Under the pieces are notes generated by a model that did no database searches, was not told the DNA's origin, and saw only the letters and a program-made list of their open reading frames with translations. A DNA stretch of 63,164 nt, counting the filler, from Candidatus Fermentibacterota bacterium (lineage in GTDB: Bacteria; JAFGKV01), in NCBI GenBank assembly GCA_016928395.1. It is 7 parts of 7 records of this genome, joined end to end, with 100 filler letters (N's around TTAATTAATTAA, not from the genome) between each part and the next. Parts side by side here need not be neighbours in the genome. Positions count along the whole stretch, not along the records: positions 11,988 to 18,286 come from JAFGKV010000142.1; 6 more parts are not named here. One strand, given 5' to 3'. Position numbers and translations under genes: made by a program. This document shows positions 6,489 through 56,107 of the stretch, one piece after another; position 1 is the stretch's first letter, and every line of letters begins with the position of its first letter.

Positions 6489-6588
6489 NNNNNNNNNNNN
6501 NNNNNNNNNNNNNNNNNNNNNNNNNNNNNNNNTTAATTAATTAANNNNNNNNNNNNNNNNNNNNNNNNNNNNNNNNNNNNNNNNNNNN
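6489..6588. other. Artificial contig linker
   Basis: N44-TTAATTAATTAA-N44, giving stops in all six frames. Confidence 0.98.
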
Positions 6589-11887: not shown

Positions 11888-11987
11888 NNNNNNNNNNNNN
11901 NNNNNNNNNNNNNNNNNNNNNNNNNNNNNNNTTAATTAATTAANNNNNNNNNNNNNNNNNNNNNNNNNNNNNNNNNNNNNNNNNNNN
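11888..11987. other. Artificial contig linker
   Basis: N44-TTAATTAATTAA-N44. Confidence 0.98.
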
Positions 11988-12074: not shown

Positions 12075-12261
12075 GCAGAGCCCGTACTCGTACTCGTTTA
12101 CGTACTCGTTCACGGAACCGCATCTCTCGATACCGATAGCGATACCGATAGCGACCCCGAGATAGGAGAAAGGAGTGAGCTGAGAGATGCCCGCTGAGAG
12201 CCCCTCGCGGAGCGAGACCAGTTCGCCCGAACCCGCGCCTGCCGAGGCTCCTCAGAGGCCT

Positions 12262-12519
12262 TCAACTTTCGCGATATGCATCTCGCCGGTGACCAATCCT
12301 CGTCATGAGGATTGTCTCGTTGAGAATGGCGAAGATCACGCGGCACTCGCCGACACGGAACTTCCTCAAGCCGGAGAACCTACCCTTCAGCTCCGGGCAG
12401 GCATGCGCCCGCTCCGGGAGCTCCTCGGCCAGCCGCATCAGAACCCTCTCCGCCTCCGCTCTCCCAAGTCGGTTGAGATCCTTGCCGACGGACTTCTTGA
12501 ATGAAACCCTACACGCCAA
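12262..12519 (-). CDS. RelE/ParE family toxin, apparently orphan
   Basis: 85 aa with GAGG RBS and TTG start. LKG.FSGLRKFRVG..RVIF and IGHRRDAY are RelE-type motifs. Confidence 0.8.
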   Translation of the reverse strand: MACRVSFKKSVGKDLNRLGRAEAERVLMRLAEELPERAHACPELKGRFSGLRKFRVGECRVIFAILNETILMTRIGHRRDAYRES

Positions 12520-12534
12520 GTTCTAACCTCTTTG

Positions 12535-12576
12535 TTGACACCGGAGGCTGTGTGCGCATACATGCATACGTATGCG
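12535..12576 (+). promoter_or_regulatory. Probable sigma70 promoter with overlapping operator of the RHH-PIN operon
   Basis: TTGACA at 12535-12540. Inverted repeat CGCATAC...GTATGCG covers the -10 region, just before the GGAGG RBS. Confidence 0.55.
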
Positions 12577-12585
12577 GAGGTGATC

Positions 12586-12843
12586 ATGGATAGGATCTTG
12601 TCGCTCAGAGTGAGTGAGGCAACGGCAGGGCAGGTCACGGCCCTGGCCCGCAGGCTCAAAGCATCGAAGAAGCGCGTGATCGAAAGCGCAGTGAGCAGAT
12701 ACGCCGCGGAGGTCGAGGCTGAAACCAGGAGAGATGTGTTCGAGGAGACCTGTGGCGCATGGAGTCGGGAAGAGGATCCCGGCCTACTGACGGAGGAATC
12801 ACGGAAGGCATTTCGGGAATCCATGGAGAAGCGCCAGTCATGA
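12586..12843 (+). CDS. Putative ribbon-helix-helix antitoxin (VapB-like)
   Basis: 85 aa. ILSLRVSE beta strand plus two helices. ATGA-coupled to the PIN gene. Confidence 0.7.
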   Translation: MDRILSLRVSEATAGQVTALARRLKASKKRVIESAVSRYAAEVEAETRRDVFEETCGAWSREEDPGLLTEESRKAFRESMEKRQS

Positions 12844-13223
12844 GGGCATATGTAGACGCCGATGTTCTGATCTGGCACTTGCGTGGCGATCGCCGGGCTC
12901 TGCGGTTCCTCAAACGCATGAGGGACACTGCCGGATGCGAACTATGGATCGGTGCGATGCAGCGTGCGGAGGTTGTGTTCTTCATGCGGCCAGAGGAAGA
13001 AGACTCGACGGTGCTGTTTCTTTCTCAGTTCCGGACGGCTCCGGTCGATCAGACGATCGTCGACCGTGCGGCTACGCTCTACCGCACATGGCATCCGAGC
13101 CATGGGATTGATCCGAACGACGCGATCCTGGCGGCCACGACTATCGAGACCGGTGGTCAGATCTACTGCCTGAACACGAAGCATTACCCGATGCCTGCGG
13201 TTGTCGCCAAGAAAGCCTGGTAG
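12840..13223 (+). CDS. vapC: PIN domain toxin (VapC family)
   Basis: AYVDADVLIWHLRG, conserved E, D.NDAILAAT and LNTKHYP PIN motifs. Confidence 0.9.
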   Translation: MRAYVDADVLIWHLRGDRRALRFLKRMRDTAGCELWIGAMQRAEVVFFMRPEEEDSTVLFLSQFRTAPVDQTIVDRAATLYRTWHPSHGIDPNDAILAATTIETGGQIYCLNTKHYPMPAVVAKKAW

Positions 13224-13371: not shown

Positions 13372-13770
13372 CCATCGCTATCGTAATCGCTATCGAACCC
13401 GCACGGATCGTGGCCGTCCCGATACCGATGGCGACCCTCGGCGGGCGACCCGAGACGGTCGCCCCGACGACGAGTGATTGACCATCGAACACCCGTAGGG
13501 GCGGGACACTGTGCCCGCCCGCACGGATCCTGGGTCGATATCGATGCCGATACCGATACCGATAGCGACTCCCCGCCCCGAACCCCCGCGGGCGACCAGG
13601 GACGGTCGCCCCTACGACGAAGGGTTGACCACCGGACCCCCGTAGGGGCGGGACGCTGTGCCCGCCCGCACGGATCGTGGGCCGATGGCGATACCGATGG
13701 CGATACCGATGGCGATACCGACTCCCCGCCCCGAACCCCCGCGGGCGACCAGAGGCGGTCGCTTTAGGGT
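13372..13770 (+). repeat. REP/BIME-like mosaic array 1 (period ~147-153 bp)
   Basis: REP-A GTAGGGGCGGGAC(A/G)CTGTGCCCGCCC at 13495 and 13642 alternates with inverted REP-B (GGGCGACCAG.GACGGTCGCCCCTAC and variants) at 13443, 13590 and 13743. Spacers contain (GATACC/GATGGC)n. Confidence 0.9.
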
Positions 13771-14153
13771 TGCACAAGCCCCAACTCAGCCCTCAGGACC
13801 TTCCGGACTGCTCGACAGAGTCGTAGTGCGTGTCGAGCGGTGTCGACGTCGGCAGACTCCCCAGGATACCGCACATGAATGGCATAGGTGCTCAGGGCAT
13901 GCAGCTCCGGGCGCAGCAGGGCCAAATCCGAATGCACCGGGCGCAGTACATCGAGGAGCACGACAAGGTTGTGCGTCCGATCGAATGGCACGTCTGCTTC
14001 CTGCAGCAGGGCCTTGAGGTACTTCTCCACGCATTGCTGGCAATGGAAGCACACGGCGTCGTAGTTGGGGCATATGCGCGCTCGGATCTCCCGACTCGCC
14101 GTCGCGAAATCGGCCTCCGCCTTGGATATCCACTCAGTCGTGAGCGGATTCAT
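13764..14153 (-). CDS. HEPN domain protein (toxin of an HEPN-MNT pair)
   Basis: WISKAEADF, VCFHCQQCVEKYLKALL, RTHNL and RYPG motifs. Confidence 0.92.
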   Translation of the reverse strand: MNPLTTEWISKAEADFATASREIRARICPNYDAVCFHCQQCVEKYLKALLQEADVPFDRTHNLVVLLDVLRPVHSDLALLRPELHALSTYAIHVRYPGESADVDTARHALRLCRAVRKVLRAELGLVQP

Positions 14154-14454
14154 AGAGCAGCCGCCCTGCCTGCACGATTTGCGTCAGAAAGTAGTCGTGA
14201 AGCGCCAACCGGCGGCGTACCTCCTCCGGTCGTCGAACAATGAGATCCAATGGAATCCGCGGTTTGATGGTGCGCAGCACTTCGACGCCTTTCTCCACCC
14301 CTGATCCCTCAAAAGCCATGACCACAAGCATGTCAACATCCGAGTACTTCGAGGCCGTGCCTGTGGCATGAGATCCGAAGAGGATAATGCGTTCGGGCCG
14401 AAAAGCTCGAACGATCGAGTCGCACACCTCCTTGATCTCGTGCTCAGCTGCCAT
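14134..14454 (-). CDS. Minimal nucleotidyltransferase (MNT antitoxin)
   Basis: PERIILFGSHATG...SDVDMLVV (GS..DxD motif). Overlaps the HEPN start. Confidence 0.92.
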   Translation of the reverse strand: MAAEHEIKEVCDSIVRAFRPERIILFGSHATGTASKYSDVDMLVVMAFEGSGVEKGVEVLRTIKPRIPLDLIVRRPEEVRRRLALHDYFLTQIVQAGRLLYESAHD

Positions 14455-14789
14455 TCCGTGTTCTCCCTGTGTACCGGATTCACACAAGTGCTTGACTGGT
14501 GCAGCATCCCGTGCAGCCATGGTGCTCGAGCCGTGAGATGCCACCGAACTAGATTCAACATGTAAGGTTAGCCGGACTAGACGGATTGTCAATCAGTCGA
14601 ATGGATGCCCGACCCGCTAGATCCAAACCGGAGGACGCCAGGAAGAACACCCGCCGCAGATCGTGGCCCCGCACCGCTGGATGCTGTCAAGGGCCACGCG
14701 GCCACCGCTCGTCCAGCTATCCATTCGTCCAAGAGCTCCACGCTTGTCTTCGAGTACACGGGCCTTTCGGCGGTGCCATCTCGTCTTCC

Positions 14790-15180
14790 TCATCGCTCTC
14801 GATATCGAACCCGTAGATCGTGGCCGGCCCGATGGCGATGGCGATAGCGACCCGGCGGGCGACCAGGGACGGTCGCCCCCAAGGCTATTGGTTGACCATC
14901 GGACACCCGTAGGGGCGGGACACTGTGCCCGCCCGCACGGATCGTGGGCCGATGCCGATGCCGATGGCGATAGCGACTCCCCGCCCCGAACCCCCGCGGG
15001 CGACCAGAGACGGTCGCCCCTACGAGGAAGGGTTGACCACCGACCCCCGTAGGGGCGGGACGCTGTGCCCGCCCGCACGGATCGTGGGCTGATGCCGATG
15101 GCGATACCGATACCGATAGCGACTCCCCGCCCCGAACCCCCGCGGGCGACCAGAGACGGTCGCCCCTACGACGAAGGGTT
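14790..15180 (+). repeat. REP/BIME-like mosaic array 2, a direct-repeat counterpart of array 1
   Basis: Inverted REP-B at 14857, 14998 and 15144; REP-A at 14909 and 15049. Same leader and spacers as array 1. Confidence 0.9.
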
Positions 15181-15265
15181 GCCGCACTCTCAACCCTGAG
15201 AAATCTGAACGCGTCCCGCGCCTTCAGGGGCGCGACTGAACCCAGAACCCTGTTCCCTGTAACCT
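15181..15265 (+). repeat. Dispersed ~58-bp repeat (copy 3) with degenerate heptamers
   Basis: GCCGCACTCTCAACCCTGAGAAATCTGAACGCG...CCTTCAGGGGCGCGACTGAACCCAGAACCCTG. Confidence 0.55.
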
Positions 15266-15798
15266 ACTCCCAGCGGGCCATGCAGCAAAATCGGGTGCTG
15301 AATCGTTCTGTTGGTGAGAGCGGGATGAGAGACCTCGAAGAGACGAGGGAGCTCAGGCGCCCGGGGGAAGTGACTATGACCAGAGCAGGGGGTAATCCCG
15401 CCGGCCGTGAGAGCCTGTGGACCGGGCTCGACGCGGTAGTGCCCCACGAGAAGAGGGGGCTCGTGGGGCACGCCGCGTTGCGGCCCCCCGAGGCAGGGCC
15501 GCCGGAATTGCCGGAGCACATCACCGCCAGGCGGTCTGCCGCCTGCGATGCCCTGCCCCGTGCCTGGGCCAGGGTTCGGCAGGCACTGGAGGCATGGGAG
15601 TCGCCCGGGCACATGCAATCACCATAGATACCTCAGAGTCGACAGTATCGCTGGATTGGATCACCGCCCCGCCCGCGTTCAGTGGCGGGCCTGTTCTCTT
15701 CGCCCCATGGATCGCCCCTTCTCCTACTCCCATGGACAGGCTATCTTATTTGCACGTCACACACCGCATACATGGGCCCCTCACGGAGCGAGGAACGC

Positions 15799-18123
15799 GT
15801 GGCAGGTGGGAAGCTCTCCTTCGCAACCATCGATTCGCGGCATGAAGAACTCCTGGCCGGGCTGCCCAAGGCCCCGAAGCCGGCAGCGCTGAAGCTCATT
15901 GCCCACCTCGCCGACCTGCCGGATCTTGTGACGTATCCTCCTGCGCTCTACTACCAGGTCGACACATTGCACAGGCTCGTCGATCTCGTGTTGGATCCAT
16001 TCCCCCTCACCAGCAATCTCCCGCTGCTCACGGACCTTCTCTCCCTCCTGGCGGGCCTGCCCGAGCCGATCGCCGCCCGGCTGCCCCGATTGCCCGAGGC
16101 CCGGGCGCGCCTCGGCGCGCTGCGGTGTCTCGAGCTGGCCGCCCAAGACGACTGGGAGGCGGCAAAGCACGCCCTCCCTGCCGGCGCGGACGTTGGGACC
16201 GCCGAATCGCAGGACATGGATCTGTTACTGGGCTCCCTCGGCGTGCTTCTCCGAGGTGGCGGCGCGGTATGGCCTTTTCATGTGCGGCCCATCCGAACCC
16301 TCTCGCCGGGCACCGTGCTCACCGTATTGGTTGATGGTGAGGGTGTTCCTCCGGAGTGCCGCGAAGCATACCTGGCCACGGTGAACGCTTCAGTCCACCT
16401 GAAGCGATGCTCGCAACCGGGGCCGCCCGTGGTGCGCTCCGTCAGCGATCGCGGAGAAGAACTAGTGGTGGGAGAAGACCTCAGGGATCTCGTGATCGAG
16501 GCGTTGGATCGCACCACGGCTCTGCTGGGCCCCCAAGTGCATGCAAAGCTGCGAACCAGCCAGACGGAGGTCATCCTGGCAATCAGGCATCCGGCTCCGG
16601 TGACGGAGGTGACGGGACGATCCATCCTGCTGCCTCTGATCATCGCTCTGGCCCAGGCCCTGGGTGAACGCCTCAACCTCTCGGCGGTGGTGCGGGCGGA
16701 CAGCGGCGTGGTGTGGACAGGGGATGTGGATTCCTACGGGTCGCTGGAGGCCGTGTCGCACATCGAGGAAAAGATCCACCGGGTGGCATACTCGCGCTGC
16801 AAGGGCTTTGCGTTTCCGGCGCAACAACTGGAGGAAGTAAACGACGCCATCGGCTCAGGCAAAGCCGGAAGGGTTCTCGATGCGATTCCCGTGACGAACC
16901 TGGTGGATCTCCTCGGCCGGGTTTCGGCGGTGTCCATTCAGAGCCGGGGTACTGCCGTTCGCGCCGGCGTGGCGATCAAAAGAAGGGCCAGGCCGCTGGG
17001 GATTGCGGGAGTTGCGGCGGCAGGACTGCTCATCGTGGCTCTGGGCATCGGCCTCCCCCGCATCGCCTCCTGGCTGGACACCACGGTTGCCTCCGCCGCC
17101 TTCACCGAAACCCGCGACAAGATTCAGGTCTTCAATGCCTCCGGCCGCGGGCTGCGGTCGTTCCCCATCGTGCCGACGGAGGGGTTTCGGGTCTTGGCCA
17201 TCGACGTCGACCTCGACGGACGTCGCGAGATCTTCTACGGCACGGGAGTCCGCGATTCCGTGCCCGGCACGCTCTTCTGCCTCGACGATCACGGCAGAGA
17301 ACGCTGGAGGTTTCGCGGCGGGTTTCGCGAGGGCGAGCCGAAACCCTACGACCTCCGCAACACATTCAGCGCCGGCGGCCCCTACGTGCATGATCTGGAT
17401 CATGACGGGCTCAACGAGGTGGTGGCGGTGTTCAACCATTCGCCCTACTCCCCTGGGCAACTGGCGCTGCTGACTCGCGAGGGCGAGTACTTGAGCAGCT
17501 TCTGGCATCCGGGAGCGCTCTACGGCGCGCCGCTGTCCAATGACATGCATGCCGCCGCCTTCGTTGACATCGACCATGACGGCCTGGATGAGATTCTCAT
17601 CGGGGCCACGAACAACCGGCTCAACATGCCGGTGCTGGCCATTCTGGATCCGCGGTCGATCAGGGGAAAGGGGCCGATGTCCCTCGACGATACGACCGGT
17701 GCGAGATGGCAGAGCTATGTCGTGTTCCCCGCATGCCCGCCATTCGAGGAGACGGCGTCCACGGTGGCAAGGCTCGCGGTAATGGAGGTCAAAGCCATCC
17801 GGTGGGAAGGGCAGGACGCGCTCCGGGTAAGCTCATCGGGATACGCGCCGGACGGCACGCTCTGCGGGTTCGCCTACCATCTGGACTATGATCTGAACCT
17901 CTTGTGGTACAATGCCAACGATCAGATCTTGAAGTGGATTCGCCGCGCGCGACGGCGGGGCGAGACCGATGCCGATGTCGACTCCCCGGAGTTCCGCCGG
18001 ATGATGACCGACATCCGGATCATCCCGGGAGATCCGGCGCTGCTCGTGCCACCGGAAAAGGGGTTCCGCCTGATTCCGCGGAAGCCCTCCACGGCTCCTG
18101 GCACGGGTTGGGAACCCTCGTGA
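15799..18123 (+). CDS. Membrane protein with Lon-type (S16) protease-like domain, one TM helix and C-terminal FG-GAP repeats
   Basis: VTGRS(ILL)...WTGDVDSYGSLEAVSHIEEK...FAFPAQQ resembles the Lon_C Ser-Lys core. TM helix at ~16996-17060. DVDLDGRREI, DLDHDGLNEV and DIDHDGLDEI repeats. GTG start after GAGGAA is assumed; alternative ATG at 15772. Confidence 0.75.
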   Translation: MAGGKLSFATIDSRHEELLAGLPKAPKPAALKLIAHLADLPDLVTYPPALYYQVDTLHRLVDLVLDPFPLTSNLPLLTDLLSLLAGLPEPIAARLPRLPEARARLGALRCLELAAQDDWEAAKHALPAGADVGTAESQDMDLLLGSLGVLLRGGGAVWPFHVRPIRTLSPGTVLTVLVDGEGVPPECREAYLATVNASVHLKRCSQPGPPVVRSVSDRGEELVVGEDLRDLVIEALDRTTALLGPQVHAKLRTSQTEVILAIRHPAPVTEVTGRSILLPLIIALAQALGERLNLSAVVRADSGVVWTGDVDSYGSLEAVSHIEEKIHRVAYSRCKGFAFPAQQLEEVNDAIGSGKAGRVLDAIPVTNLVDLLGRVSAVSIQSRGTAVRAGVAIKRRARPLGIAGVAAAGLLIVALGIGLPRIASWLDTTVASAAFTETRDKIQVFNASGRGLRSFPIVPTEGFRVLAIDVDLDGRREIFYGTGVRDSVPGTLFCLDDHGRERWRFRGGFREGEPKPYDLRNTFSAGGPYVHDLDHDGLNEVVAVFNHSPYSPGQLALLTREGEYLSSFWHPGALYGAPLSNDMHAAAFVDIDHDGLDEILIGATNNRLNMPVLAILDPRSIRGKGPMSLDDTTGARWQSYVVFPACPPFEETASTVARLAVMEVKAIRWEGQDALRVSSSGYAPDGTLCGFAYHLDYDLNLLWYNANDQILKWIRRARRRGETDADVDSPEFRRMMTDIRIIPGDPALLVPPEKGFRLIPRKPSTAPGTGWEPS

Positions 18124-18286: not shown

Positions 18287-18386
18287 NNNNNNNNNNNNNN
18301 NNNNNNNNNNNNNNNNNNNNNNNNNNNNNNTTAATTAATTAANNNNNNNNNNNNNNNNNNNNNNNNNNNNNNNNNNNNNNNNNNNN
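18287..18386. other. Artificial contig linker
   Basis: N44-TTAATTAATTAA-N44. Confidence 0.98.
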
Positions 18387-18502
18387 GCTATCGGCTGTCA
18401 GCTATCGGCTGTCAGCTATCGGCTGTCAGCTATCGGCTTTCAGACCCGCCCAGCGCTACGAGAAACCGTTGCCGTCGTAGGGGCGACCGCCCCTGGTCGC
18501 CA
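18387..18502 (+). repeat. 14-bp tandem repeat (4 units) plus GTAG REP
   Basis: GCTATCGGCTGTCA x3 and GCTATCGGCTTTCA (18387-18442). GTAGGGGCGACCGCCCCTGGTCGCC starts at 18477. Confidence 0.85.
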
Positions 18503-23717: not shown

Positions 23718-23817
23718 NNNNNNNNNNNNNNNNNNNNNNNNNNNNNNNNNNNNNNNNNNNNTTAATTAATTAANNNNNNNNNNNNNNNNNNNNNNNNNNN
23801 NNNNNNNNNNNNNNNNN
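23718..23817. other. Artificial contig linker
   Basis: N44-TTAATTAATTAA-N44. Confidence 0.98.
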
Positions 23818-25744: not shown

Positions 25745-28700
25745 TCAGCTCCATCTCGGCTCGGCCAGCAGTCTCCTGGCAAACTGCTCCAGCGTCTGAG
25801 ACGCAGCCAGTCCCCTGACACCCTCAACAGTTTCGACCGCCAGGGTCTTTTCAAGCTTCGCGATGGCCTGCTCCATCGACTCACGGTCTTCCTGGTGAAA
25901 TGGTTGGTCCAGCCCCACCAGAAACGCCTCCAGCGCTCCCGCCATGTCTCCGAACCGATCCTTGAGCCGAGCAACCGCGCGTATGATCTCCACGATCTGC
26001 GGAACAGCTTTGGTCTCGTTGGCAAGGGCCAGCGCGTTTCGGTAGCATTGCTCAGCCTCACGGGACTCATCGAGTTCCATACAGTGATCGGCCCTGAACA
26101 TGAGCGCCATCGTCTGACCATGCCGGTCACCGATGGCCTCTGCCTCATCGTGGGCCTCTTCAAGAATGGCTTTCGCGCAGTCAGGCAGCCCGCGGGCGGC
26201 GAGAGACACCCCCAGATGCGCCAACGTGTTGGCAAGCCCGCGGCGGTCTCCCAATGCCCGTTTGATAGCGACACTCTCCTCGTATCTTCGCACGGCCCCC
26301 TCGTCGTTGCCACGCCGATGGGCCACGATACCCAGCGTGGCCAGCGCACGGGATTCACTCAAGCGGTCTCCGACCGCCCGCGCAAGCACCAGCGCCTCAT
26401 CTGCCAGTCGTCGGGTCTCGGAGAGGTCCCCACGCTGCAGTGCCATACCTGTGAGGTTCTGCAGGACCGTTGCCTTCCCCGGCTTATGATCGATCTGGGT
26501 GAAGATGGCGAGGGCTCGCTCGTAGTGCGTGACTGCTTCGTCGATGCGCCCGAAGCCATCGGCGATGACGCCGAGATTGGCGTGGCATGCACCTTGACCC
26601 TGGAGATTGCCGATATCCTCCCAGGTGACCAATGCGTGTGCGATCAGATCCTTGGCATCATCCGTATCGCCCAAGGCGATGGAGGCGATGCCGGCGGTAT
26701 TGGCCGCGGAGGCCGCGTCGATCCGCAGATCGAGTGCTTCGGCCATCGCCCTCGCTTCCTGTGCCGAATCGCGTGCCTCCTGATAACGGGCAAGCCGATA
26801 GATCAGTGCACTCCAGCATGTCAGCGCCACGGCGAGCGCCTTGAGGCCCCACTCATCTGTCTTCCACGCCTTCCGAAGCGCCTCAACAGTTCCACCGAAC
26901 GCCATCTCCCCCTCGCGAAACCTCGAACGGTGCTCGAAGAACCGGTGCATGCCTCGGAGATAGAAGAGCAGGAGTTCGCTCCGGGAAGCGGACAACGCAT
27001 GTTCCCAGCCCCCACGGATGTTGGCCATCTCTCGTTCTATCTCGTCGAAGACCGACGCTTCACTGGCGGCTGCCAGCCCATGCTCGTGCTTCTGCACGAA
27101 TGCCCCGTAGAACTCTGCGTGCAACTCCTCAGTCTCCGACCGTTCCCCCGGTAAGCGCGTCAGCTCCTCACGGGCGTACTGGTGCAGCAGCTCATGGACG
27201 GAGTATCGGTTGGATCGGTTCCGCGCTATCAGCGACTTGTCGACGAGACGTGAAATGGTCACCAGAGAGGCCCCGACCACTGCCCGCGCAGCCTCCAGGG
27301 TGAATCCTCCGCGGAAGACCGATAGGCGTCGATAGATGCTCTGTTCCGAGTGCCGCAGGAGATTCCAGGAATGGTCGAACACCGCGCGCATGCTCCGGTG
27401 GCGAGGCGGTGCCCCGGGAAGCCGGGCGGCAAGCTGATCGATGTCTTCGGAGAGGCGCCCGGCGATGGCTTCGCAGGGAACGTCATCGACGGATGCAGCC
27501 GCTAACTCGATGCCCAGGGGATTGCCGCCGACAAGCTGGCAGATGGTCGCGATGGATTCCCAGTCTGTTGGCTTAGGGATGAACCCCGCCGAGGCACGTC
27601 GCGCAACATGATGGAATAGCATGAGCGCGGGATGGTTCGCCGGATCGGGAGCATCGGTCGGGGCGGGGACGCCCAACCCGGCGATCTCCACCACGGTCTC
27701 CATCGGCAGACCTGTGCGTTCACGGCTGGTGACCAGGAACACCAGGCCAGAGCCTGCCGCCAGGAGCTCGTCGAGCAGGCCACGGCCGTCCAGGAGGTGC
27801 TCCATGTTGTCGAATACCAGGAGCATGCGTTTACCCTTGAGGAACGCAAGAAGTTGCTCCTTGGGGTCCACCGTCCCGCGGAACGTCGCGCCGACAGCCG
27901 ACGCAACTGCGGGAATCAGAAACGCGGAGGAGGGCACGGGGGCAAGAGGTACGAGATGTGCGCCGTCCTGGAAGAGACCGCGCGCCTCTTCGGCGGCCTC
28001 AATGGCGAGACGGGTCTTGCCGATTCCTCCGGGTCCCACCAGAGAGATGAGCCGATGTGCGCCGTCAGTCAGAAGGTGGAGCAGGTGTTCCTGCTCGCGT
28101 TCCCGACCGATGAACGGCGTCATCCACCCTCCCTGATTGACGCCTTCGGCAGACTGACCGGGGGAATTGATCCTGACAAGGATCTCCTCCAGGAGCTTGC
28201 TCACCATGCCGGCATCGCGCACCCGCTTCGAACGATCCCGATCGAGCATCCATGCGAGCAGCGAGACCAGCGAATCGGGCGCCTCAGGCTGGAATTCGCT
28301 GATCAGGGGAGCAGGCCGCTCTACCAGCCCAGGCAGATCTTCCTCCGTGGCCGGAGTACCGAAAGGGAGCGTGCCCGCCAGCATCTCGAAGACCATCAGG
28401 CCCAGTGACCACAGGTCGGACTCAGGGCCGAGGGATTCCCCCCGGAACCCCTCGGGACTCAAGTAGGCCAGTGTTCCGATCAGCCGTTCAGTCTGTTCTG
28501 AAGGGCTCACAGACGACAGCGCCGCGATGCCGAAATCCGACAGGCGGGGGGTTCCATCGGCAGCCATGAGCACGTTTGCCGGCTTCACATCGCGATGTAT
28601 GACGCCATGCTGGTGGGCGTGGTGCAGAGCGGAGGCCAGGTCAATGGACACCTCGATAGTCCATTGAAGCGAGAAGCGATGCTCTCGCGTCAGGAGATCG

Positions 28701-28984
28701 CGAAGGGATCCGCCGCCGATGAAATCCGTCACTAAGAACGGGATGCCGTGGTGGATTCCCGAGGCGCGCAACTGCACCACACACGGATGCGAAAGCGTTC
28801 CCAGCAAGGCCGCCTCACGCATGAGGGTCTCCTGGAGGCTCTGATCAGCGCCTTCCAGGAGCTTGATGGCAACCGGCTCGCCGTTCAATGTGTCGATTCC
28901 GCGATACACTCGGCCGGAGGCGCCGTGTCCGATGGGGTCGCCGATTGCGAAACGTCTGGCCAGCAGGCCGCTTACCTCATCCAT
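25745..28984 (-). CDS. Ser/Thr protein kinase - STAND NTPase (NB-ARC-like) - TPR protein
   Basis: Kinase motifs IGHGASGRVY, VAIK, HRDVKPAN, DFG and GTLAYLSPE. FIGRE, Walker A GPGGIGKT, Walker B LLVFDNMEHL and GGNPLGIELAA. C-terminal TPRs. Confidence 0.93.
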   Translation of the reverse strand: MDEVSGLLARRFAIGDPIGHGASGRVYRGIDTLNGEPVAIKLLEGADQSLQETLMREAALLGTLSHPCVVQLRASGIHHGIPFLVTDFIGGGSLRDLLTREHRFSLQWTIEVSIDLASALHHAHQHGVIHRDVKPANVLMAADGTPRLSDFGIAALSSVSPSEQTERLIGTLAYLSPEGFRGESLGPESDLWSLGLMVFEMLAGTLPFGTPATEEDLPGLVERPAPLISEFQPEAPDSLVSLLAWMLDRDRSKRVRDAGMVSKLLEEILVRINSPGQSAEGVNQGGWMTPFIGREREQEHLLHLLTDGAHRLISLVGPGGIGKTRLAIEAAEEARGLFQDGAHLVPLAPVPSSAFLIPAVASAVGATFRGTVDPKEQLLAFLKGKRMLLVFDNMEHLLDGRGLLDELLAAGSGLVFLVTSRERTGLPMETVVEIAGLGVPAPTDAPDPANHPALMLFHHVARRASAGFIPKPTDWESIATICQLVGGNPLGIELAAASVDDVPCEAIAGRLSEDIDQLAARLPGAPPRHRSMRAVFDHSWNLLRHSEQSIYRRLSVFRGGFTLEAARAVVGASLVTISRLVDKSLIARNRSNRYSVHELLHQYAREELTRLPGERSETEELHAEFYGAFVQKHEHGLAAASEASVFDEIEREMANIRGGWEHALSASRSELLLFYLRGMHRFFEHRSRFREGEMAFGGTVEALRKAWKTDEWGLKALAVALTCWSALIYRLARYQEARDSAQEARAMAEALDLRIDAASAANTAGIASIALGDTDDAKDLIAHALVTWEDIGNLQGQGACHANLGVIADGFGRIDEAVTHYERALAIFTQIDHKPGKATVLQNLTGMALQRGDLSETRRLADEALVLARAVGDRLSESRALATLGIVAHRRGNDEGAVRRYEESVAIKRALGDRRGLANTLAHLGVSLAARGLPDCAKAILEEAHDEAEAIGDRHGQTMALMFRADHCMELDESREAEQCYRNALALANETKAVPQIVEIIRAVARLKDRFGDMAGALEAFLVGLDQPFHQEDRESMEQAIAKLEKTLAVETVEGVRGLAASQTLEQFARRLLAEPRWS

Positions 28985-36949: not shown

Positions 36950-37217
36950 GCGGTCCCGTCTCCATTCGCCTCCACACGGAGTGACGCCTGGATCCGACAT
37001 ACTACCGGGTTCGGCTCCTTGCCCGATGTCCAGGAAGGGGAGGTCTTCGCCAGCTTCGCCCTTCAGGGCCTCCTACGCAAGTGCTGAGCCATCTGCGCAG
37101 CGACAGAGTCTCCTCGAACTTGACTGTGAATCCCAGGCGGCGCAAGTTGGGAGGTGAAGGCTTTCATAGTGGGACATGTGCCCCGGCGTCATGTCACCTA
37201 CGGCCAGGAGGGGCACC

Positions 37218-38849
37218 ATGAGCCGGCTCGCTTCGATTCTACTTCCGCTCGCGTTTCTGCTGCAGTCTGCAGAGTCGCAGAAACCCATGAGCGTGATCCA
37301 CACGCTGTCATCTCTGGAGCAGCCTGATTATTCCTTCGGTCGGTCGGTCGCGTTCATCGGCGACGTGAGCGGCGACGGTGTCGCCGACATCCTGATCGGG
37401 GATTCCGGGTTCAGGGCATGCGTCTTCTCAGGCAAGACCGGCGCGTTGCTGCGCACATTAGGATCGCCTTCCGAAGAGGTTGGCGACTTCGGCTTCTCAG
37501 TGGCTGGGCTCGCTGATGTAACCGGCGACAACGTCTCAGATCTCATTGTCGGCGCCCCGGCAGAGGACTCTGGAGCATCTGCCGCTGATGCGGGCAGATC
37601 CTACGTGTTCTGCGGGGTGACGGGGACTGTTGCACAGACTCTCATCTCTCCACACGAGGAGGAGTCGGGGCGTTTCGGCCACGCGGTGGCAGGGGTTGAC
37701 GATGTTGACGGCGACGGCATCGACGACCTGATCGTGGGAGCTCCATACGAGAATCCTGGAACATCGCCACCGGACGCGGGGCGTGTCTACGTCTTCAGCG
37801 GGGCGACCGGCATGGTGATACGTGAGCTTGTGTCGCCCGGCGAGATCTACGGTCAGGCAGGCGGGCATTTCGGTGCGTCGGTCTGCGGCGCTGGGGATCT
37901 GGATGGCGATGGCACTCCCGACGTCGTGGTTGGGGCACCCGGCGAGCACCCACCTTCGGGCGAGCTCGGGCCAGGTCGAGTGTATGCCTTTAGCGGCGCG
38001 ATAGGGCTACCCCTGTGGACAGGAGCCTCCCTCGACCTCGAAGACGGCGGCGGGTTTGGGTTGTCGATTTCGATGGTGGGAGACATCGATGGCAATGGCA
38101 TTTCCGAGTGCCTGGTGGGCGCTCCCTTTGAGGACGATGACTGGTTCATCTTCAACTGCGGGCGCGCCTACATCCTGAGCGGCGCTGCCGGGACGGCGGT
38201 TCGCATTGTGCAGCCGCCCTATGGAGAGCGGGACGGGCAGTTTGGTTTCAGCGTCTCGTGCGCAGGGGATATTGATGGGGACGGGTGTTCCGACTACATC
38301 GTGGGCGCGCTGCTGGAGGGACTATCGCCAGAGGGCGAAGACTGGATCGGCCGTGCCCATGTGTTCAGTGGTGCTTCCGGAGAGGCGGTGTGGTCGCTCG
38401 ACTCCCCCAATCCATGGTACGGCGGGAGTTTCGGCATTGCCGTGGCAGGAGGCTTCGATGTGACCGGCGACGGGGTGCCTGAAGTCATCGTGGGCGCCCC
38501 TGGTGAGAACCCTGCACGTGCCTACGTGTACGGTCCCGAGATGGTGCTCAACGGACAGGTCGAGGGGGGAGCGCTGGCTCTCTCGTGGACCCCTGTGGTC
38601 GGTGCATTCCAGTATTGGGTCTATGGGGCGGAAAACGCTGCCTACTGCCTGCCCGGCATGGCTCCGGGCTACGAAGACCGCCTGGTGGTCCTCCCTCCTA
38701 GCACTGAGTCGTGGAGTAGCTCTCACGGAATCGGCGACCCGAACAGCAACTGGGCTTACGTGATACTGGCGGTCAGCTCAACCGAGTCGGAGCTCTGCCG
38801 TTCCGGCCGCGCGGGAGAACACGACTTCGACGTCGGCTATCTTCCATAA
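37218..38849 (+). CDS. Secreted integrin-alpha/FG-GAP beta-propeller protein with C-terminal SxxAGEHD domain
   Basis: AGGAGG RBS and signal peptide. Seven FG..V...D..GDG..D..VGAP-type repeats. Confidence 0.9.
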   Translation: MSRLASILLPLAFLLQSAESQKPMSVIHTLSSLEQPDYSFGRSVAFIGDVSGDGVADILIGDSGFRACVFSGKTGALLRTLGSPSEEVGDFGFSVAGLADVTGDNVSDLIVGAPAEDSGASAADAGRSYVFCGVTGTVAQTLISPHEEESGRFGHAVAGVDDVDGDGIDDLIVGAPYENPGTSPPDAGRVYVFSGATGMVIRELVSPGEIYGQAGGHFGASVCGAGDLDGDGTPDVVVGAPGEHPPSGELGPGRVYAFSGAIGLPLWTGASLDLEDGGGFGLSISMVGDIDGNGISECLVGAPFEDDDWFIFNCGRAYILSGAAGTAVRIVQPPYGERDGQFGFSVSCAGDIDGDGCSDYIVGALLEGLSPEGEDWIGRAHVFSGASGEAVWSLDSPNPWYGGSFGIAVAGGFDVTGDGVPEVIVGAPGENPARAYVYGPEMVLNGQVEGGALALSWTPVVGAFQYWVYGAENAAYCLPGMAPGYEDRLVVLPPSTESWSSSHGIGDPNSNWAYVILAVSSTESELCRSGRAGEHDFDVGYLP

Positions 38850-42440: not shown

Positions 42441-42540
42441 NNNNNNNNNNNNNNNNNNNNNNNNNNNNNNNNNNNNNNNNNNNNTTAATTAATTAANNNN
42501 NNNNNNNNNNNNNNNNNNNNNNNNNNNNNNNNNNNNNNNN
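42441..42540. other. Artificial contig linker
   Basis: N44-TTAATTAATTAA-N44. Confidence 0.98.
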
Positions 42541-44638: not shown

Positions 44639-45026
44639 TCCTCATACTCCTCTCTGGAAGCCGCGCTTTCACCGCCCCACCGGGGCGCTGTGACCACTCC
44701 TGGAACGGCAGGTTGGGCCACACTGTTGGGGTCTATCATGATTGTGCCAGAGACCATAGTCTTGTCGAGTACAGGACAATCCAGAATAATACTCTCCTAC
44801 GCGTCACGTCGTCAAGCAGCGACTGATGGGTCGCAGCGGCAGGATTCGCGGGAGGATTGGGGAGAGATGAGACCGCTCGCCTCGCTCTTATTGCCGTGCC
44901 GTACGCATTGAACCCGAGTACTTCGTGCACACCTCCCGTCCGCTTGACCCGGTGGAGCAGTACCGGTTTCTTGACTGACATCGTTCTCAGGGGCCTATCC
45001 GTACAGCCGGCCCAATGGAGGATTCC

Positions 45027-47045
45027 ATGCCCGGGTTCAGAATCAGACCTCCGTTCATCGGACTACTGGGCATCCTGCTTTCCGCTTCGTCTCTTGATGG
45101 GCAGCCCTGGGAGCAAGACGACCTTCTCTTCAATCCCAGCGGTGTTCCCTCTCTTGCGTTTTCCCAGCCACGTTTCGCCGATCTGGATGCTGACGGGGAT
45201 TTTGATTTGATTCTCGGCAGTATCGATGAAGCACCACTCTATTTCATCAACGACGGAAGCGCCACCAGCCCGTCTTTTCACCTGGAGCCGGAGGTTTTCT
45301 GGCCCGTTTCAGCCCTCGATGCCGAAGTCGGCGTGTGCGCGGATCTCGATAGCGACCTTGACCTTGATTTTGTCAGCGGTGGTTTCTCCGGGCTGAATCT
45401 CTTTGAGAACATCGGTGACGTTTCCCAACCCTCATTTCACAAGGTCGACGGTTTCTTCCAAGGGATGACGGTGGGCTACAATCCCGTACCGACGTGCGGC
45501 GATATTGATGGCGACGGCGACCACGACCTGCTTGTCGGTCTCAGCGAGGATGGTCGTCTGAAGTTCTATGTCAATACGGGCACGCCTGATTCGGCCGTCT
45601 TCTCCGAACTCCAATCCCAGATGTGGTTTGACGTCGGGCTGTACGCATACCCCTGGTTCGCCGATCTGGATACCGATGATGATCTCGATCTGCTAGTGGG
45701 TCGAGATGGGACGGGGTTTTTCTACTATCGCAATGTGGGCGACGTAACTGCATGGCAGTGGCAACCCGACAATGCAGTGTTCTCAGGGCTGGCACACACC
45801 ACATACTGGAACTCGCCATGTCTGGTCGATCTCTCGGGCGACGGTAACAAGGACCTCGTCTATGGCACGGCGGCCGGGCCTCTGAACTACTACATCAATA
45901 CCGGTAGCCCCTCAGCTCCCACGTGGACGGTGGAAAGCGGCCCTTTCGGCGGGGTGATCGACGTAGGAGGCGCCAGTTCGCCGTTTCTGTTTGATTTCGA
46001 TGGTGATGGTGATCTGGATCTGGTGAGTGGCACCCAACTGGGGAATATCAAGTACTACCAAAATACCGGTTCCGCCCAGACGCCGGCCTGGGAGCCCGAC
46101 CATGCTCGTTTCAGCGCCATCGATCACTCCATCTACTCGGCGATATGCCTTGGCGACGCCGATGGGGATTCACTGCCCGATGCCGTGGTCGGCGACATGA
46201 ATGGCCAGCTCTTCTTTCACAGAAACACGGGCACAAGCTTTGTCTTTGACGAGTCCGTCCTCGCGGGTATCGATGTGGGCTACACATCGGTGCCGCGACT
46301 GACCGACATGGATGCCGACGGAGATCTCGATCTCGTGGCAGGGAATGAGGCAGGCAATCTGTTCTACTTCCGAAACACGGGCGATGCCGAATGGCCCGAA
46401 TGGACTCTGGCGCCGGGCTTTTTCGGCGGGATCGACGTGGGGAGCTACTGTTCTCTCACCATGGGCGACCTGGATGGCGATGGCGATAGGGATCTTGTGA
46501 CGGGCAACATCTCTCACGAAATCCAGTTCTTCAGGAATGTCGCGGGTATGTGGATTGAGGATCCAACCGTCGTGGCCGGGATCTTTGCGGGACAGAATGC
46601 GGCGCCCGCGTTTGGCGATTTGGATGAGGATGGCGACCTGGATCTCACCATCGGCAACTATGAAGGCACGTTCAACTACTACCAGAACATGATTTCCGTG
46701 GATTCGACCCCACCCGAGGCCGTGTCGGACCTCACGGTTGCTTTGGCAGGGAGTTTGTTCGCGCTTCAATGGTCGGCGGTGACGGCCGACACGGCCGGTG
46801 CGCCGGAGACGGTAGATCGCTATGTCGTGTATCGAGGTGACTGGGCTTATTTCGTGCCCACGGCCGCGGAATCGCTGGGCGCCACCTCCGGCACCAGCTA
46901 TGCCGACAGTAGCTCGTTCAGCCCATCGGTGAACGTGTCGTATCTTGTGAAAGCCCTTGACGCCAACGGCAACTGGTCGGCCGAATCAAACAGGGTGGGC
47001 GAGTTCGATCTGGAGCTGTTGTCAGCCAAGGGCGCGGCTCGGTAG
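45027..47045 (+). CDS. Secreted FG-GAP/VCBS repeat protein with C-terminal SNRVGEFD domain
   Basis: GGAGG RBS and signal peptide. About ten DxDxDGDxDL repeats. Confidence 0.9.
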   Translation: MPGFRIRPPFIGLLGILLSASSLDGQPWEQDDLLFNPSGVPSLAFSQPRFADLDADGDFDLILGSIDEAPLYFINDGSATSPSFHLEPEVFWPVSALDAEVGVCADLDSDLDLDFVSGGFSGLNLFENIGDVSQPSFHKVDGFFQGMTVGYNPVPTCGDIDGDGDHDLLVGLSEDGRLKFYVNTGTPDSAVFSELQSQMWFDVGLYAYPWFADLDTDDDLDLLVGRDGTGFFYYRNVGDVTAWQWQPDNAVFSGLAHTTYWNSPCLVDLSGDGNKDLVYGTAAGPLNYYINTGSPSAPTWTVESGPFGGVIDVGGASSPFLFDFDGDGDLDLVSGTQLGNIKYYQNTGSAQTPAWEPDHARFSAIDHSIYSAICLGDADGDSLPDAVVGDMNGQLFFHRNTGTSFVFDESVLAGIDVGYTSVPRLTDMDADGDLDLVAGNEAGNLFYFRNTGDAEWPEWTLAPGFFGGIDVGSYCSLTMGDLDGDGDRDLVTGNISHEIQFFRNVAGMWIEDPTVVAGIFAGQNAAPAFGDLDEDGDLDLTIGNYEGTFNYYQNMISVDSTPPEAVSDLTVALAGSLFALQWSAVTADTAGAPETVDRYVVYRGDWAYFVPTAAESLGATSGTSYADSSSFSPSVNVSYLVKALDANGNWSAESNRVGEFDLELLSAKGAAR

Positions 47046-47988: not shown

Positions 47989-48088
47989 NNNNNNNNNNNN
48001 NNNNNNNNNNNNNNNNNNNNNNNNNNNNNNNNTTAATTAATTAANNNNNNNNNNNNNNNNNNNNNNNNNNNNNNNNNNNNNNNNNNNN
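47989..48088. other. Artificial contig linker
   Basis: N44-TTAATTAATTAA-N44. Confidence 0.98.
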
Positions 48089-50742: not shown

Positions 50743-51807
50743 TTACTTTCCGGCGCCACCGATGACACTCTCCACCGCGCGGCGACCGACAGGGGAATCG
50801 AAGCTCTCGATGGCCAGGAATTCCCCCCTGGTTGCCCCGTACACAATGCCTCCCGAATGATCCACCTCCCGCAACCGTCCCTTGCCATCGGGCGTCTCAC
50901 GCACCTCGCCCAGATCGCCCAGGAGGGCTCTGAGTGCCTCGGCGGCATCCTGCGGGGAGTTCATCCGGCAGAGAAGCACCTCGTCGTCTGTATTCCTGCG
51001 ATGCAGGTTCTCTCCGAGCGTGCGTGGGCCCGTGGGGTCTCTGAATACGATTCGCCACAGATCGCGCGGCGAAGCACCCAGCCTGGCCGCCAGTGACCCC
51101 ATCAACAGCCCGTCAGCCTGATGCCATCCCAGAGCGACCCATCCCTCGATTGGGGCGGGCAAAGCCCAGGACGGAGGCGCTGCGGACAGCACCCGATGTT
51201 CAAGTTCGAAGGGGCCATGGCGCCCGGTCGTGCGGGCATGGGCATCCACTACCGCTCCGGAGAGCATCCGCCCGTCCAACAAGGCGCCGACCGCCCCGGC
51301 CACTCCCTCGGGGAACCTGCCCGAGAGGCTGATCATCCAGGTCAACGGCGTATCCGGCCCCGGCGCCGTCGCGTCATGGGCGACCACGGCGTATGGGTTT
51401 CTGCGGGGTTCGATGACGCCGGCGGATCGCCCTTCCACGTCTCCCGCACCGAACAGGTAGAGCCCCCGTACGGGGAATGCCGCAGGTCCCTGGTATTCCG
51501 TCGTCCGCCACCAGACGCTGGGGTGGTCGCGCAGTACCTGGTTGGAGTTCTCCGTCCCCACTACGATGAGGTGATAGGAGGAGGCCTGGTCTGGGTGTGC
51601 GGCAACCCATGTGTCGGTGAGCAGCCGCGTCGAGGGGTCAGCCGGATCCAAGGCACGGCAGATGCGCAGCGCTTCCTCCCGCTCCGGTGCCGATGCCCCT
51701 TCGCCGATGACGACCCGGGTTCCGGTTCCCAGCCAGTCCAGCAGGGGAGGCGCAGACGAGGCGCCATGGAACAGGAGGACTGCAAGTATGAAAACGTGCT
51801 TACTCAT
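50743..51807 (-). CDS. Secreted hypothetical protein
   Basis: Signal peptide. HLIVVGT..SN segment. Overlaps the upstream stop by 8 bp. Confidence 0.7.
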   Translation of the reverse strand: MSKHVFILAVLLFHGASSAPPLLDWLGTGTRVVIGEGASAPEREEALRICRALDPADPSTRLLTDTWVAAHPDQASSYHLIVVGTENSNQVLRDHPSVWWRTTEYQGPAAFPVRGLYLFGAGDVEGRSAGVIEPRRNPYAVVAHDATAPGPDTPLTWMISLSGRFPEGVAGAVGALLDGRMLSGAVVDAHARTTGRHGPFELEHRVLSAAPPSWALPAPIEGWVALGWHQADGLLMGSLAARLGASPRDLWRIVFRDPTGPRTLGENLHRRNTDDEVLLCRMNSPQDAAEALRALLGDLGEVRETPDGKGRLREVDHSGGIVYGATRGEFLAIESFDSPVGRRAVESVIGGAGK

Positions 51808-54800: not shown

Positions 54801-56107
54801 TCGGGCGAATCGCTCAAGACCTCGGGGTTCAGCACCAACGCCGTCTTTCCGGCAGCAACGGCAGCTCGCACCAGCGACGGCGCCGCGGCACCGTCCACGA
54901 CAACGATATCCGCATCGTCCTGTTCGGCAGGTGCAAGCCCCATGAGGCCAAGCCGGTTCCACGGCAACCCCATGGAGCCCCAGACCGTGCCCACCGGGGC
55001 CGCATCATGGGGGGCGGCGGTCTGGGCACGCATGGCCGCAATCAACGAAGGACTCAGCAGCGCGGGCGCGGAACAGGCCATGACGCGTCCCGCGCCGTAT
55101 CGGGCGCTGGTGAGCAAAGGGCTCGCCCTGGGATCGTCACCGGTGATCTCCACGCGGTGGGCCCACGCCAAAGGGGAGAGGTTCCACTTCGCCGTTTCCC
55201 GGGTGCCGGGCCGCGCGAAGTGGGGGTGATCTGGGAGGTGGATTGCCGCGGTCACATCGACCAGACCCTCGTCTGGCCCCATCCCTGCCCCGAGAGGACC
55301 CACTGCCCGGGGCAGAACCGCGCCAACCCGCTCGGCCGATGGGCCCAGCACGGTGGGAAGTATCCGCTCCAAGGGCGTGTCCTCCCACAGTCGGCCCTTG
55401 TCGTAGAACACACACACAACCGTACCGCCCGTCCTCGCCCAATTCTCGATCGCCGCCCCCGACGCCCCTGAGAGAACCACTCGGCTGGACAGGATCAGCA
55501 GGTCCACGCCCGCCAGGGTCTCCTCTGTACAGCGAACCGAAAGGTCCGTTGGTCCCGCCAGGCCCCCGCGATTGGGATCTCCGGAGTCTTCGGGATTGAC
55601 GACCCTGACAGCTAGCGTGTTCAATCCTGGGCGAAGACCCGCAAGCTCAGCGTCCAAATCACCCCAATACCCGCCGCCGGCACCGATCCTTCGGCCGTTG
55701 AGAAATACCGTTACCGAGTCTTCCAGAGCCCGCAGCGTCAGGCACGGAGAAAGGGCCCCAACGCCGGCACTGCGTAGTGTGCGCCGGTACCACGCGACCC
55801 CCGTGTACCGGATGCCCCTGGCCTGCCACGGCGCACCCGTTTCCATTGGCTGCCACCCGGGGCCGTCGGCAAACGCCCAGCCCCCGGCACCGGTGTCCTC
55901 GGGATCGGCGATCCACTCCCAGGCATCCTGCCATGCAGGGAAGGGATCCATGGTAGTCACCGATGCGCCGGCACGCTCCACGGCATCCCTGAGGGGCATT
56001 GACTCGTCGCCGGGCGGTGCCAGAAGAAGCACCCTGTGACGGGGCTCCTCGGCGCACGACGTCACGGTCAGGGCGAGAACGACAATGGTGAAAAGGCAAC
56101 GGTGCAT
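51800..56107 (-). CDS. Large secreted multidomain protein with a GH2-type galactose-binding-like N-domain; possible glycoside hydrolase
   Basis: Signal or lipoprotein-like N-terminus. YTGVAWYRR...VFLNGRRIG...LRPGLNTLAVRV...GGL motif. The rest is not confidently assigned. Confidence 0.65.
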   Translation of the reverse strand: MHRCLFTIVVLALTVTSCAEEPRHRVLLLAPPGDESMPLRDAVERAGASVTTMDPFPAWQDAWEWIADPEDTGAGGWAFADGPGWQPMETGAPWQARGIRYTGVAWYRRTLRSAGVGALSPCLTLRALEDSVTVFLNGRRIGAGGGYWGDLDAELAGLRPGLNTLAVRVVNPEDSGDPNRGGLAGPTDLSVRCTEETLAGVDLLILSSRVVLSGASGAAIENWARTGGTVVCVFYDKGRLWEDTPLERILPTVLGPSAERVGAVLPRAVGPLGAGMGPDEGLVDVTAAIHLPDHPHFARPGTRETAKWNLSPLAWAHRVEITGDDPRASPLLTSARYGAGRVMACSAPALLSPSLIAAMRAQTAAPHDAAPVGTVWGSMGLPWNRLGLMGLAPAEQDDADIVVVDGAAAPSLVRAAVAAGKTALVLNPEVLSDSPDLTPWALQSRAAHDPVPLVDAATWSALSERSEPRVLQVSLPSGQNHQICVEGSRFGPVRGVWSDDALGRPCADGSWVLPPCSTVQVGVWGASDRVPLVYPGGRAVLCTGSGITLDQPLDRPTFRQPVQKALWQWEDKEPALAVRTVGRGRVASFSVPLRLEDPRELDWSDVQASKQRFLHEDTSQLLVLAIRELVSEDMLLGPIDSGPGGITVGLRRRNSRPMHVRYRFRDWQRSLLCSHDLDLRPGAGTTSFVIPWPSRDELVRYETATGDTPLWLEVALLSEEHQRCLFRVETAVRRPGPTVTVWHTPLSRRTPQRFATWPRADADFPQGMGPAGQYPLFMPGEEIRFFVESWDPAHGQVAVTARDVVQGTPVQLVEIPVRRSGSPWSVSEWRMSPPPPSVYRVDARLGDAQSHARVLVSSPTDLRSCIWDRAKGVQVLGSLYEFGDPLQFAQENLCAHADTGIAWGPFARTRPGQPWCDFLPNSFCFLPNGVHYRAWNAEIIRRLARHTWTGETLTISASLVDGFNGIPWPSAFVHPQHLAVFARWMQSRGEPALIGLAADSIAALALGDLNPDWRYFVATEVALPAHRIVRDELQSVSSGSHLTDQFDLPLFPTILRIPEVERFAESWQELFSLSSSDAWNVRAGRDYHVPTYLVSLGKALAPKGRVGHYHMEMLGGIGAERIAKAELIRRQNADLFWMMAASDEGWVPVETYADGGGVSWLGGWQTWLALSSRSTRGGHVAFQEDWHALQELYATAEAIRPRRPRGFVMAAVGPRLPSPGQDEVIMGDSARLFGMLREAGLPISGMARLDKVGTSTLPDGVIIPVPGALSSEERAGLRLCLDRGIPVGVVGMGLTPRLIASYVGIDEAVLGSPSVKLLPEGNVKGPFWDDGATEDYAAVRRFVHDLKGMSSFDVSAPEGISSYAFDGPYGLVVVVLEERGEARTAPVLLRTTGRVRHAAELLGGNTLGVKHIDRGVIIEVVLPAAGAALVQVRDE

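Follow-up and report, generated by a model that had tools for sequence, protein, structure and literature searches.

A candidate transmembrane sensor-protease with an ATPase-less Lon (S16)-type domain and an FG-GAP-type propeller in a Candidatus Fermentibacterota bacterium

The gene at positions 15799..18123 (+ strand) of the analysed window, a 63,164-base stretch of DNA from the Candidatus Fermentibacterota bacterium assembly GCA_016928395.1, encodes a 774-residue protein (P0001), which consists of a helical N-terminal domain, a Lon (S16)-type domain, one membrane helix and an FG-GAP-type beta-propeller. P0001 is proposed to be a dimeric transmembrane sensor-protease, whose propeller would sense on the outside and whose Lon-type domain would cut on the inside; the probability of this reading is put at about 45 %. 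A preliminary description of this DNA had not recognised the architecture as one described before, and literature searches agree, since in the literature covered, which excludes subscription journals and supplements, a Lon domain combined with an FG-GAP/VCBS propeller was found nowhere. The gene and the parts of its product are as follows:

15799..18123 (+): whole gene, 774 codons plus stop (open reading frame call, likely GTG start)
15799..16263 (+): N-terminal all-helical domain, residues 1-155 (model)
16264..16950 (+): predicted ATPase-less Lon (S16)-type peptidase domain, residues 156-384 (profile, Foldseek, PADLOC)
16621..16623 (+): codon of Ser275 in VTGRS, candidate nucleophile
16771..16773 (+): codon of Lys325 in HIEEK, candidate general base
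16951..17076 (+): continuous helix, residues 385-426 (full-length model)
16978-16992 (+): juxtamembrane basic stretch KRRAR
16993-17067 (+): membrane span, residues 399-423 (hydropathy)
17077..18048 (+): FG-GAP/VCBS-type beta-propeller-like domain, residues 427-750 (Pfam and model)
17203-17220 (+): DxDxDG loop DVDLDG, residue 469
17392-17409 (+): DxDxDG loop DLDHDG, residue 532
17566-17583 (+): DxDxDG loop DIDHDG, residue 590
18049..18120 (+): C-terminal tail, residues 751-774, not conserved (absent from most relatives; predicted local distance difference test score, pLDDT, 31-40)

The VTGRS, HIEEK and KRRAR motifs, the membrane helix and the three DxDxDG loops all lie where the preliminary description had placed them. 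Family profile and structure model support a Lon (S16)-type fold for the middle segment, in which the Ser and Lys are invariant and align with the Lon pair, while an ATPase module is missing. A family profile (A3) derived from a 13-row alignment of the cytoplasmic parts matches 49 distinct PDB sequences at E≤10, 48 of which are Lon proteases or CalpL; the best match is the proteolytic domain of Archaeoglobus fulgidus LonB (E 4.7e-5), while CalpL is reached with only E 0.28. The AlphaFold2 model computed on A3 for residues 1-398 (pLDDT 89.3; predicted template modelling score, pTM, 0.87) yields 189 Foldseek matches in the PDB at E≤1e-3, and among those listed all are Lon or Lon-like (E about 1e-8), in line with the Lon-type fold that had been anticipated. 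Target-normalised template modelling (TM) scores to isolated proteolytic domains of E. coli and M. jannaschii Lon are 0.73 (3wu4_B), 0.75 (1rr9_A) and 0.73 (1xhk_B). The full-length model repeats this result, with only Lon among the matches listed, and a viral fold library contributes 5 matches at E≤1e-3, all of them giant-virus or phage Lon-type proteins. The sole PADLOC match of P0001 is that of the CARF_LON model to residues 274-357 (E 1.7e-4). As had been noted earlier for P0001 itself, AAA+ Walker motifs are missing: the Walker A pattern occurs in 0/20 family proteins, and none of the family proteins scanned has an AAA Pfam match. A PDB search with the single sequence gave only designed TIM-barrel and designed-propeller matches, which were judged to be composition or repeat artefacts.

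In the profile alignment, Ser275 and Lys325 fall opposite the catalytic Ser509 and Lys552 of A. fulgidus LonB, located there in G-D-S-A-S and V-T-Q-K-I-E, respectively. In the model, Ser275 is located just before helix 277-291 and Lys325 within helix 322-330, a placement that agrees with that in Lon. The dyad, proposed previously for P0001, is retained in the homologues, with Ser in 16/16 sequences covering the position and Lys in 17/17. Ser275 and Lys325 are among only 9 invariant positions of the cytoplasmic part in the 12 longest relatives, and among the 5 positions kept in every covering sequence when all 17 are considered. In addition, Gly308, Gly314 and Ser332 are present in 17/17 and Thr307 in 16/17 aligned sequences. 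Within the close clade, conservation peaks in the Lon core (residues 266-340; 49 % mean identity), as compared to 39 % for the helical domain and 42 % for the propeller; the Lon-like domain as a whole also reaches 42 %. From the sequences, this conservation pattern argues for a working active site rather than for a mere scaffold.

The family is rare, the cytoplasmic part matching 14 representatives at E≤1e-3 in 1.84 billion proteins; a word-indexed search of 5.8 billion proteins found 4 relatives, and a further profile search returned the same four only. Nearly all long relatives comprise 749-795 residues and share the layout of P0001; the members of the family bear only the names "hypothetical" or "VCBS repeat-containing". 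A fragment of 140 residues (P0017) led to three proteins of 569-701 residues from Bacteroidetes-labelled metagenome-assembled genomes. These Bacteroidetes-type members are only 18-19 % identical to P0001 and are nevertheless collinear homologues (hhalign probability 98.1 %, E 1.1e-13, 423 columns), the collinearity starting at the Lon core and, past the membrane helix, covering the entire propeller. Their clade displays the more classical motifs G-S-S-L-G-A-A-L-T and A-L-T-G-G. By tblastn, no relative was detected in 72,556 plasmid or 50,697 phage records.

The N-terminal domain had been described as helical, which is reproduced by the model, where residues 8-151 form nothing but helices (pLDDT about 90) and make up one compact unit with the Lon-like domain. 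The N-terminal domain contains the conserved motifs RHEEL and LFYHVD, but has no match in Pfam, NCBIfam or PDB sequences. Judged only from where the Atlas and Foldseek alignments begin, a vestige of the AAA lid of Lon might survive in residues from about 62 to 155.

Residues 399-423 represent the single strong hydrophobic segment of P0001 (Kyte-Doolittle 2.3, runner-up 1.59), and one such dominant segment is present in 16/16 family proteins of at least 300 residues. In the full-length model (pLDDT 85.7), the surrounding helix 385-426 is unbroken. In all 16 proteins, the 15 residues before the segment contain 4-6 Lys/Arg, whereas 1-3 Lys/Arg and 1-3 Asp/Glu follow it. According to the positive-inside rule, this charge bias would place the N-terminal half in the cytoplasm and the propeller outside throughout the family, as had been concluded for P0001 before.

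Dimerisation was predicted for two copies of the cytoplasmic part in 3 runs, accompanied by 3 controls. The pair attains an ipSAE of 0.63 (median of 3 runs) versus 0.00 for the best control; the runs share at least 94 % of their contacts, with a partner pLDDT of at least 84. The mark applied was reached by 20/30 proteins with a solved structure of two copies of one chain, compared with 1/23 solved as single chains, counts that are only a rough guide for P0001 because a custom alignment was used for it. The predicted interface is formed by residues 240-252, 294-298, 312-315, 366-373 and 380-382, identical on both copies and with self-contacts such as 246-246, which suggests a two-fold dimer in the model. 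It includes the nearly invariant Gly244 and Asn293 and stops just short of the helix entering the membrane, which is what a dimeric receptor would lead one to expect. A controlled prediction thus supports association of the cytoplasmic part with itself, and the modelled two-fold arrangement would fit a dimeric receptor rather than a head-to-tail Lon-like ring. The oligomerisation put forward in the preliminary description thereby gains a predicted counterpart; a ligand or phage as its trigger and cytoplasmic cleavage as its outcome are putative.

The propeller part is recognised by Pfam above the respective cut-offs as FG-GAP_3 (35.7 bits, cut-off 26.9) and FG-GAP (25.4 bits, cut-off 22.1), with nothing else of note. 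In the model it is all-beta, with about five four-stranded sheets (DSSP) plus two short helices (pLDDT mostly 85-95), and its profile matches PQQ-type designed propellers as well as 3hxj via a motif at residues 485-513. Two more FG-GAP repeat proteins are encoded on other contigs of the window (37176-38849 and 45015-47045, both +); tblastn revealed no resemblance of the P0001 propeller to them (best E 3.1 in 37176-38849, none at E≤10 in 45015-47045).

As a sensor-protease, P0001 would cross the inner membrane once, with the N-terminus lying in the cell and the C-terminus outside it. The propeller may, in dependence on calcium, bind a ligand from the envelope or the environment, a glycan or a component of the cell surface being the most likely candidates; the ligand-induced change would be transmitted along the paired helices, upon which the Lon-type domain may cleave, to a limited extent and without ATP, either a cytoplasmic target or the protein's own helical N-terminal domain. 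The order of sensor outside, single helix and output inside is also that of integrin alpha chains, which carry an outside FG-GAP propeller, and of ToxR/CadC-type regulators; the likeness is one of analogy plus a structural lead, the output of P0001 being a candidate peptidase domain. Bacterial transmembrane signalling is known mainly as phosphorylation, second messengers or multi-protease cascades that destroy anti-sigma factors. If the proposal is correct, a single chain sensing outside and cutting inside would constitute a much shorter signalling route, and, on the reading with a swappable propeller, one-step proteolytic signalling across the membrane could be a general design. A function would then also be at hand for the "VCBS repeat-containing" and "hypothetical" proteins in Fermentibacteria- and Bacteroidetes/Ignavibacteria-type genomes.

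By analogy, P0001 would work most like CalpL/CARF-Lon, but it lacks the sensor and the partners that define them. In CalpL, a Lon-domain protease independent of ATP, the formation of filaments driven by a ligand activates the enzyme, which then cleaves the anti-sigma factor CalpT (10.1101/2024.05.08.593097). What is shared is the fusion of an ATPase-less Lon-type Ser-Lys peptidase domain to a sensor domain, in P0001 a candidate one; the mode of action proposed for P0001 would also resemble that of CalpL, in which self-association upon ligand binding leads to one specific cut. CalpL differs in being soluble and in having a cytoplasmic SAVED/CARF sensor for cyclic oligoadenylates, whereas the candidate sensor of P0001 is an extracytoplasmic propeller beyond a membrane helix. 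Accordingly, neither a SAVED/CARF Pfam domain in P0001 nor CRISPR or CalpT/CalpS-like genes on its contig were found. If true, the proposal would extend switchable, site-specific ATP-less Lon domains as in CalpL from cytoplasmic nucleotide sensing to envelope sensing.

Several observations weigh against a regulated sensor-protease. Pfam Lon_C (PF05362) does not match P0001 even at E≤10, and an NCBIfam scan of P0001 likewise gave no Lon match. Among the relatives, 4/17 match Lon_C at E≤1, and just one of the 17 (P0010) passes the gathering score (25.6 bits versus 21.1). The earlier claim of a Lon/S16 core match thus holds for the family profile and for the fold (TM 0.73-0.75), but not for Lon_C; as the Lon_C threshold is missed while the family profile reaches Lon structures, P0001 is best regarded as a divergent S16 relative rather than a Pfam-defined member. 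Furthermore, the Lon-like domains of RadA (5lkm, 8rxc) and BrxL (8emc, 8emh) match the fold nearly as well, with similar Foldseek scores, and these domains are not known to be proteases and are fused to ATPases that act on DNA; the P0001 family differs from them by keeping Ser and Lys and lacking an ATPase. The dimer pass may in part reflect likeness to solved Lon-domain crystals, and it is silent on regulation. The DxDxDG loops are not all kept, relatives having 0-3 each, and neither a sigma/anti-sigma factor nor a transcription factor is present on the contig as candidate substrate. A lead in favour of the propeller as a sensor module, and no more than a lead, comes from the Atlas structure search with residues 427-774, which detected look-alike clusters at TM 0.70-0.73, given as TM values only, with no alignment or E-value. 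One of them, with 150 members and a length of 704 residues, is from Ignavibacteriota and was matched by the cytoplasmic part as well; another, of 521 residues, has Trans_reg_C in 97 % of its members. A cluster with Peptidase_C14 in 95 % of its members reaches TM 0.55. It is doubtful that P0001 represents the first recognised bacterial transmembrane receptor-protease, in which a dimeric periplasmic propeller sensor would directly control a cytoplasmic ATP-independent Lon-type peptidase and would be swappable onto caspase-like and ToxR-like DNA-binding outputs.

Unlikely, but foremost among the alternatives, is a clean-up peptidase of the LonC kind that is tethered to the membrane and active constitutively; without ATP and without any signal, it would degrade peptides that are unfolded or close to the membrane, and its propeller would just anchor or position it in the envelope. 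LonC operates without ATP hydrolysis, MtaLonC still degrading unfolded proteins and peptides despite lacking ATPase activity, and archaeal LonB is membrane-inserted (PMC3391209). The conserved catalytic pair and the lack of a visible partner or substrate gene on the contig would suit such a role, and LonA, LonB and LonC (MEROPS S16) share with P0001 the fold of the proteolytic domain and the aligned Ser-Lys pair. Lon proper has, however, an AAA+ module and a hexameric chamber, whereas P0001 has no AAA module, a G-R-S-I-L-L-P sequence around Ser, an extra extracytoplasmic propeller and a modelled two-fold dimer that would contrast with the head-to-tail degradation-chamber ring. In addition, a family of 14 representatives in 1.84 billion proteins is ill-suited to housekeeping, a large propeller conserved at 42 % mean identity would be costly as a mere anchor, and in the Atlas lead the same type of propeller is coupled to an output domain that binds DNA. 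Specific removal of a regulator by a membrane-anchored S16 peptidase without ATPase is exemplified by DdcP (YlbL) of Bacillus subtilis, which acts on YneA (PMC8767453). DdcP is described there as having a PDZ domain and an extracellular protease domain, whereas P0001 has no PDZ match in Pfam and a peptidase domain that the charge bias places in the cytoplasm. Should P0001 be merely a membrane-tethered peptidase, it would constitute a modest addition to the S16 family.

Cleavage by the Lon-type domain of its own chain, i.e., of the N-terminal domain or the juxtamembrane helix, with the freed fragment as the message, has a low probability. A possible partner for cleavage in trans is encoded directly downstream, where the first 55 codons of a second gene precede the contig end:

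18120..18286 (+): start of a second tandem paralogue; GTG at 18120 overlaps the stop of the first gene as GTGA

Its product is 45 % identical to residues 5-47 of P0001 (tblastn, about 44 aligned residues, E 4e-4), and its GC content by codon position is 0.71/0.49/0.76; the family is thus tandemly duplicated here. Self-processing would further agree with the strong conservation of the N-terminal domain (RHEEL, LFYHVD), its modelled tight packing on the peptidase (pTM 0.87) and the lack of a separate substrate gene on the contig. On the other hand, there is no evidence of any cleavage site, and the N-terminal domain has no DNA-binding or other recognisable output fold.

Still less probable is an anti-phage surface sensor, in which phage contact would lead to cytoplasmic cleavage and thereby to dormancy or death, in functional connection with neighbouring toxin-antitoxin (TA) genes. 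The window is made up of 7 contigs, so that the true neighbourhood of the gene is restricted to its own contig (11988-18286), i.e., to 3.8 kb upstream and 0.16 kb downstream, and nothing past 18286 is a real neighbour. The TA genes are situated on this contig, 1.2-3.5 kb upstream of the gene:

12262-12519 (-): ParE toxin
12532-12843 (+): RHH protein
12759-13223 (+): PIN-domain protein
13764-14153 (-): HEPN protein
14134-14592 (-): MNT nucleotidyltransferase (PADLOC candidate family PDC-S09, E 4e-8)

The TA island pointed out in the preliminary description is therefore real and on the same contig, but nothing except adjacency links it to the P0001 gene, from which it is separated by about 1.2 kb consisting of repeats and non-coding DNA. 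Besides these genes and the PDC-S09 match, the CARF_LON match of the Lon part would speak for a defence role, and CalpL (10.1101/2024.05.08.593097) sets a precedent for a Lon-domain immune effector. However, PADLOC-DB 2.0 recognised no complete known defence system, only the partial match to CARF_LON and PDC-S09, and the plasmid and phage records were devoid of relatives. Moreover, in a Gram-negative organism, which the Fermentibacteria relatives would lead one to assume, the propeller would be periplasmic and shielded from phage by the outer membrane. The probability of a role in phage sensing is low, with adjacency only in its favour.

Least probable of all is a Lon-like domain serving as a non-catalytic dimerisation or scaffold module in a protein of mainly envelope or adhesion function with a cytoplasmic anchor, as the near-equal RadA and BrxL matches, the Lon_C miss and the deviation of Gly-Arg-Ser-Ile-Leu-Leu-Pro from the usual Gly-Pro/Asp-Ser-Ala-Gly might indicate, since Ser275 and Lys325 are kept in every covering sequence down to about 18 % overall identity and the distant clade exhibits the more classical G-S-S-L-G-A-A-L-T and L-T-G-G motifs.

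The open frame containing the P0001 gene spans 15682-18123 (+), 15682 being the first possible start. Two elements upstream of the gene bear on its start:

15671-15690 (+): GC-rich hairpin followed by CTGTTCTCTT, terminator-like, about 110 nucleotides (nt) before the gene start
15785..15794 (+): Shine-Dalgarno-like GGAG/GAGGA, 5 nt ahead of GTG 15799

The start at 15799, and with it the gene coordinates of the preliminary description, is accepted because of the Shine-Dalgarno-like motif and because a database protein of 98 % identity begins at the same codon, whereas the alternative ATG at 15772 is not preceded by such a motif. The terminator-like hairpin overlaps 15682, while a start at 15799 clears it. 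The GC content by codon position (0.69/0.48/0.78) is gene-like and matches that of the neighbouring genes. A promoter scan upstream of the gene found none, and Rfam gave a single sub-threshold match to a snoRNA model and nothing else on the contig. One related locus was found by a 4-row scan, on a contig of 2,569 bp where the gene stands alone.

About 600 nt directly before the gene are without a recognisable gene. An open reading frame of 115 codons just upstream (15280-15627, +) is somewhat gene-like in its codon-position GC content (0.71/0.57/0.76) and has no Pfam or PADLOC match. The region between the TA genes and the P0001 gene also harbours part of a repeat family:

13432-13774 and 14846-15194: 146-nt intergenic repeat, in tandem pairs flanking the HEPN/MNT pair
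12116-12172: shorter pieces of the same repeat

Hexamers resembling GATACC/GATAGC occur in runs within the repeat, along with a GGGCGACC...GGTCGCCC hairpin, and the whole looks like a small non-coding repeat element.

The 7 contigs of the window are chained by 6 linkers of the form N44-TTAATTAATTAA-N44 (6489-6588, 11888-11987, 18287-18386, 23718-23817, 42441-42540 and 47989-48088), and gene order across these linkers is without meaning because they join separate contigs. The GC content is even along the window (about 0.58-0.67), and the other contigs carry ordinary bacterial genes, e.g., for EF-G, RNase E/G, radical SAM enzymes and alpha-2-macroglobulin. Among further observations on these contigs, a 1,079-residue protein (25745-28984, -) has a STAND-like signalling layout made up of a Ser/Thr protein kinase domain, TPR repeats and an AAA_16 region, and an open reading frame of 1,435 residues (51800-56107, -) has no Pfam match at E≤1e-5. 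At the beginning of the contig placed after that of the P0001 gene, a 14-nt unit (GCTATCGGCTGTCA-like; 18387-18500) is present four times in tandem, followed within this region by a GGGGCGACC...GGTCGCC hairpin that resembles the repeat on the contig of the P0001 gene.

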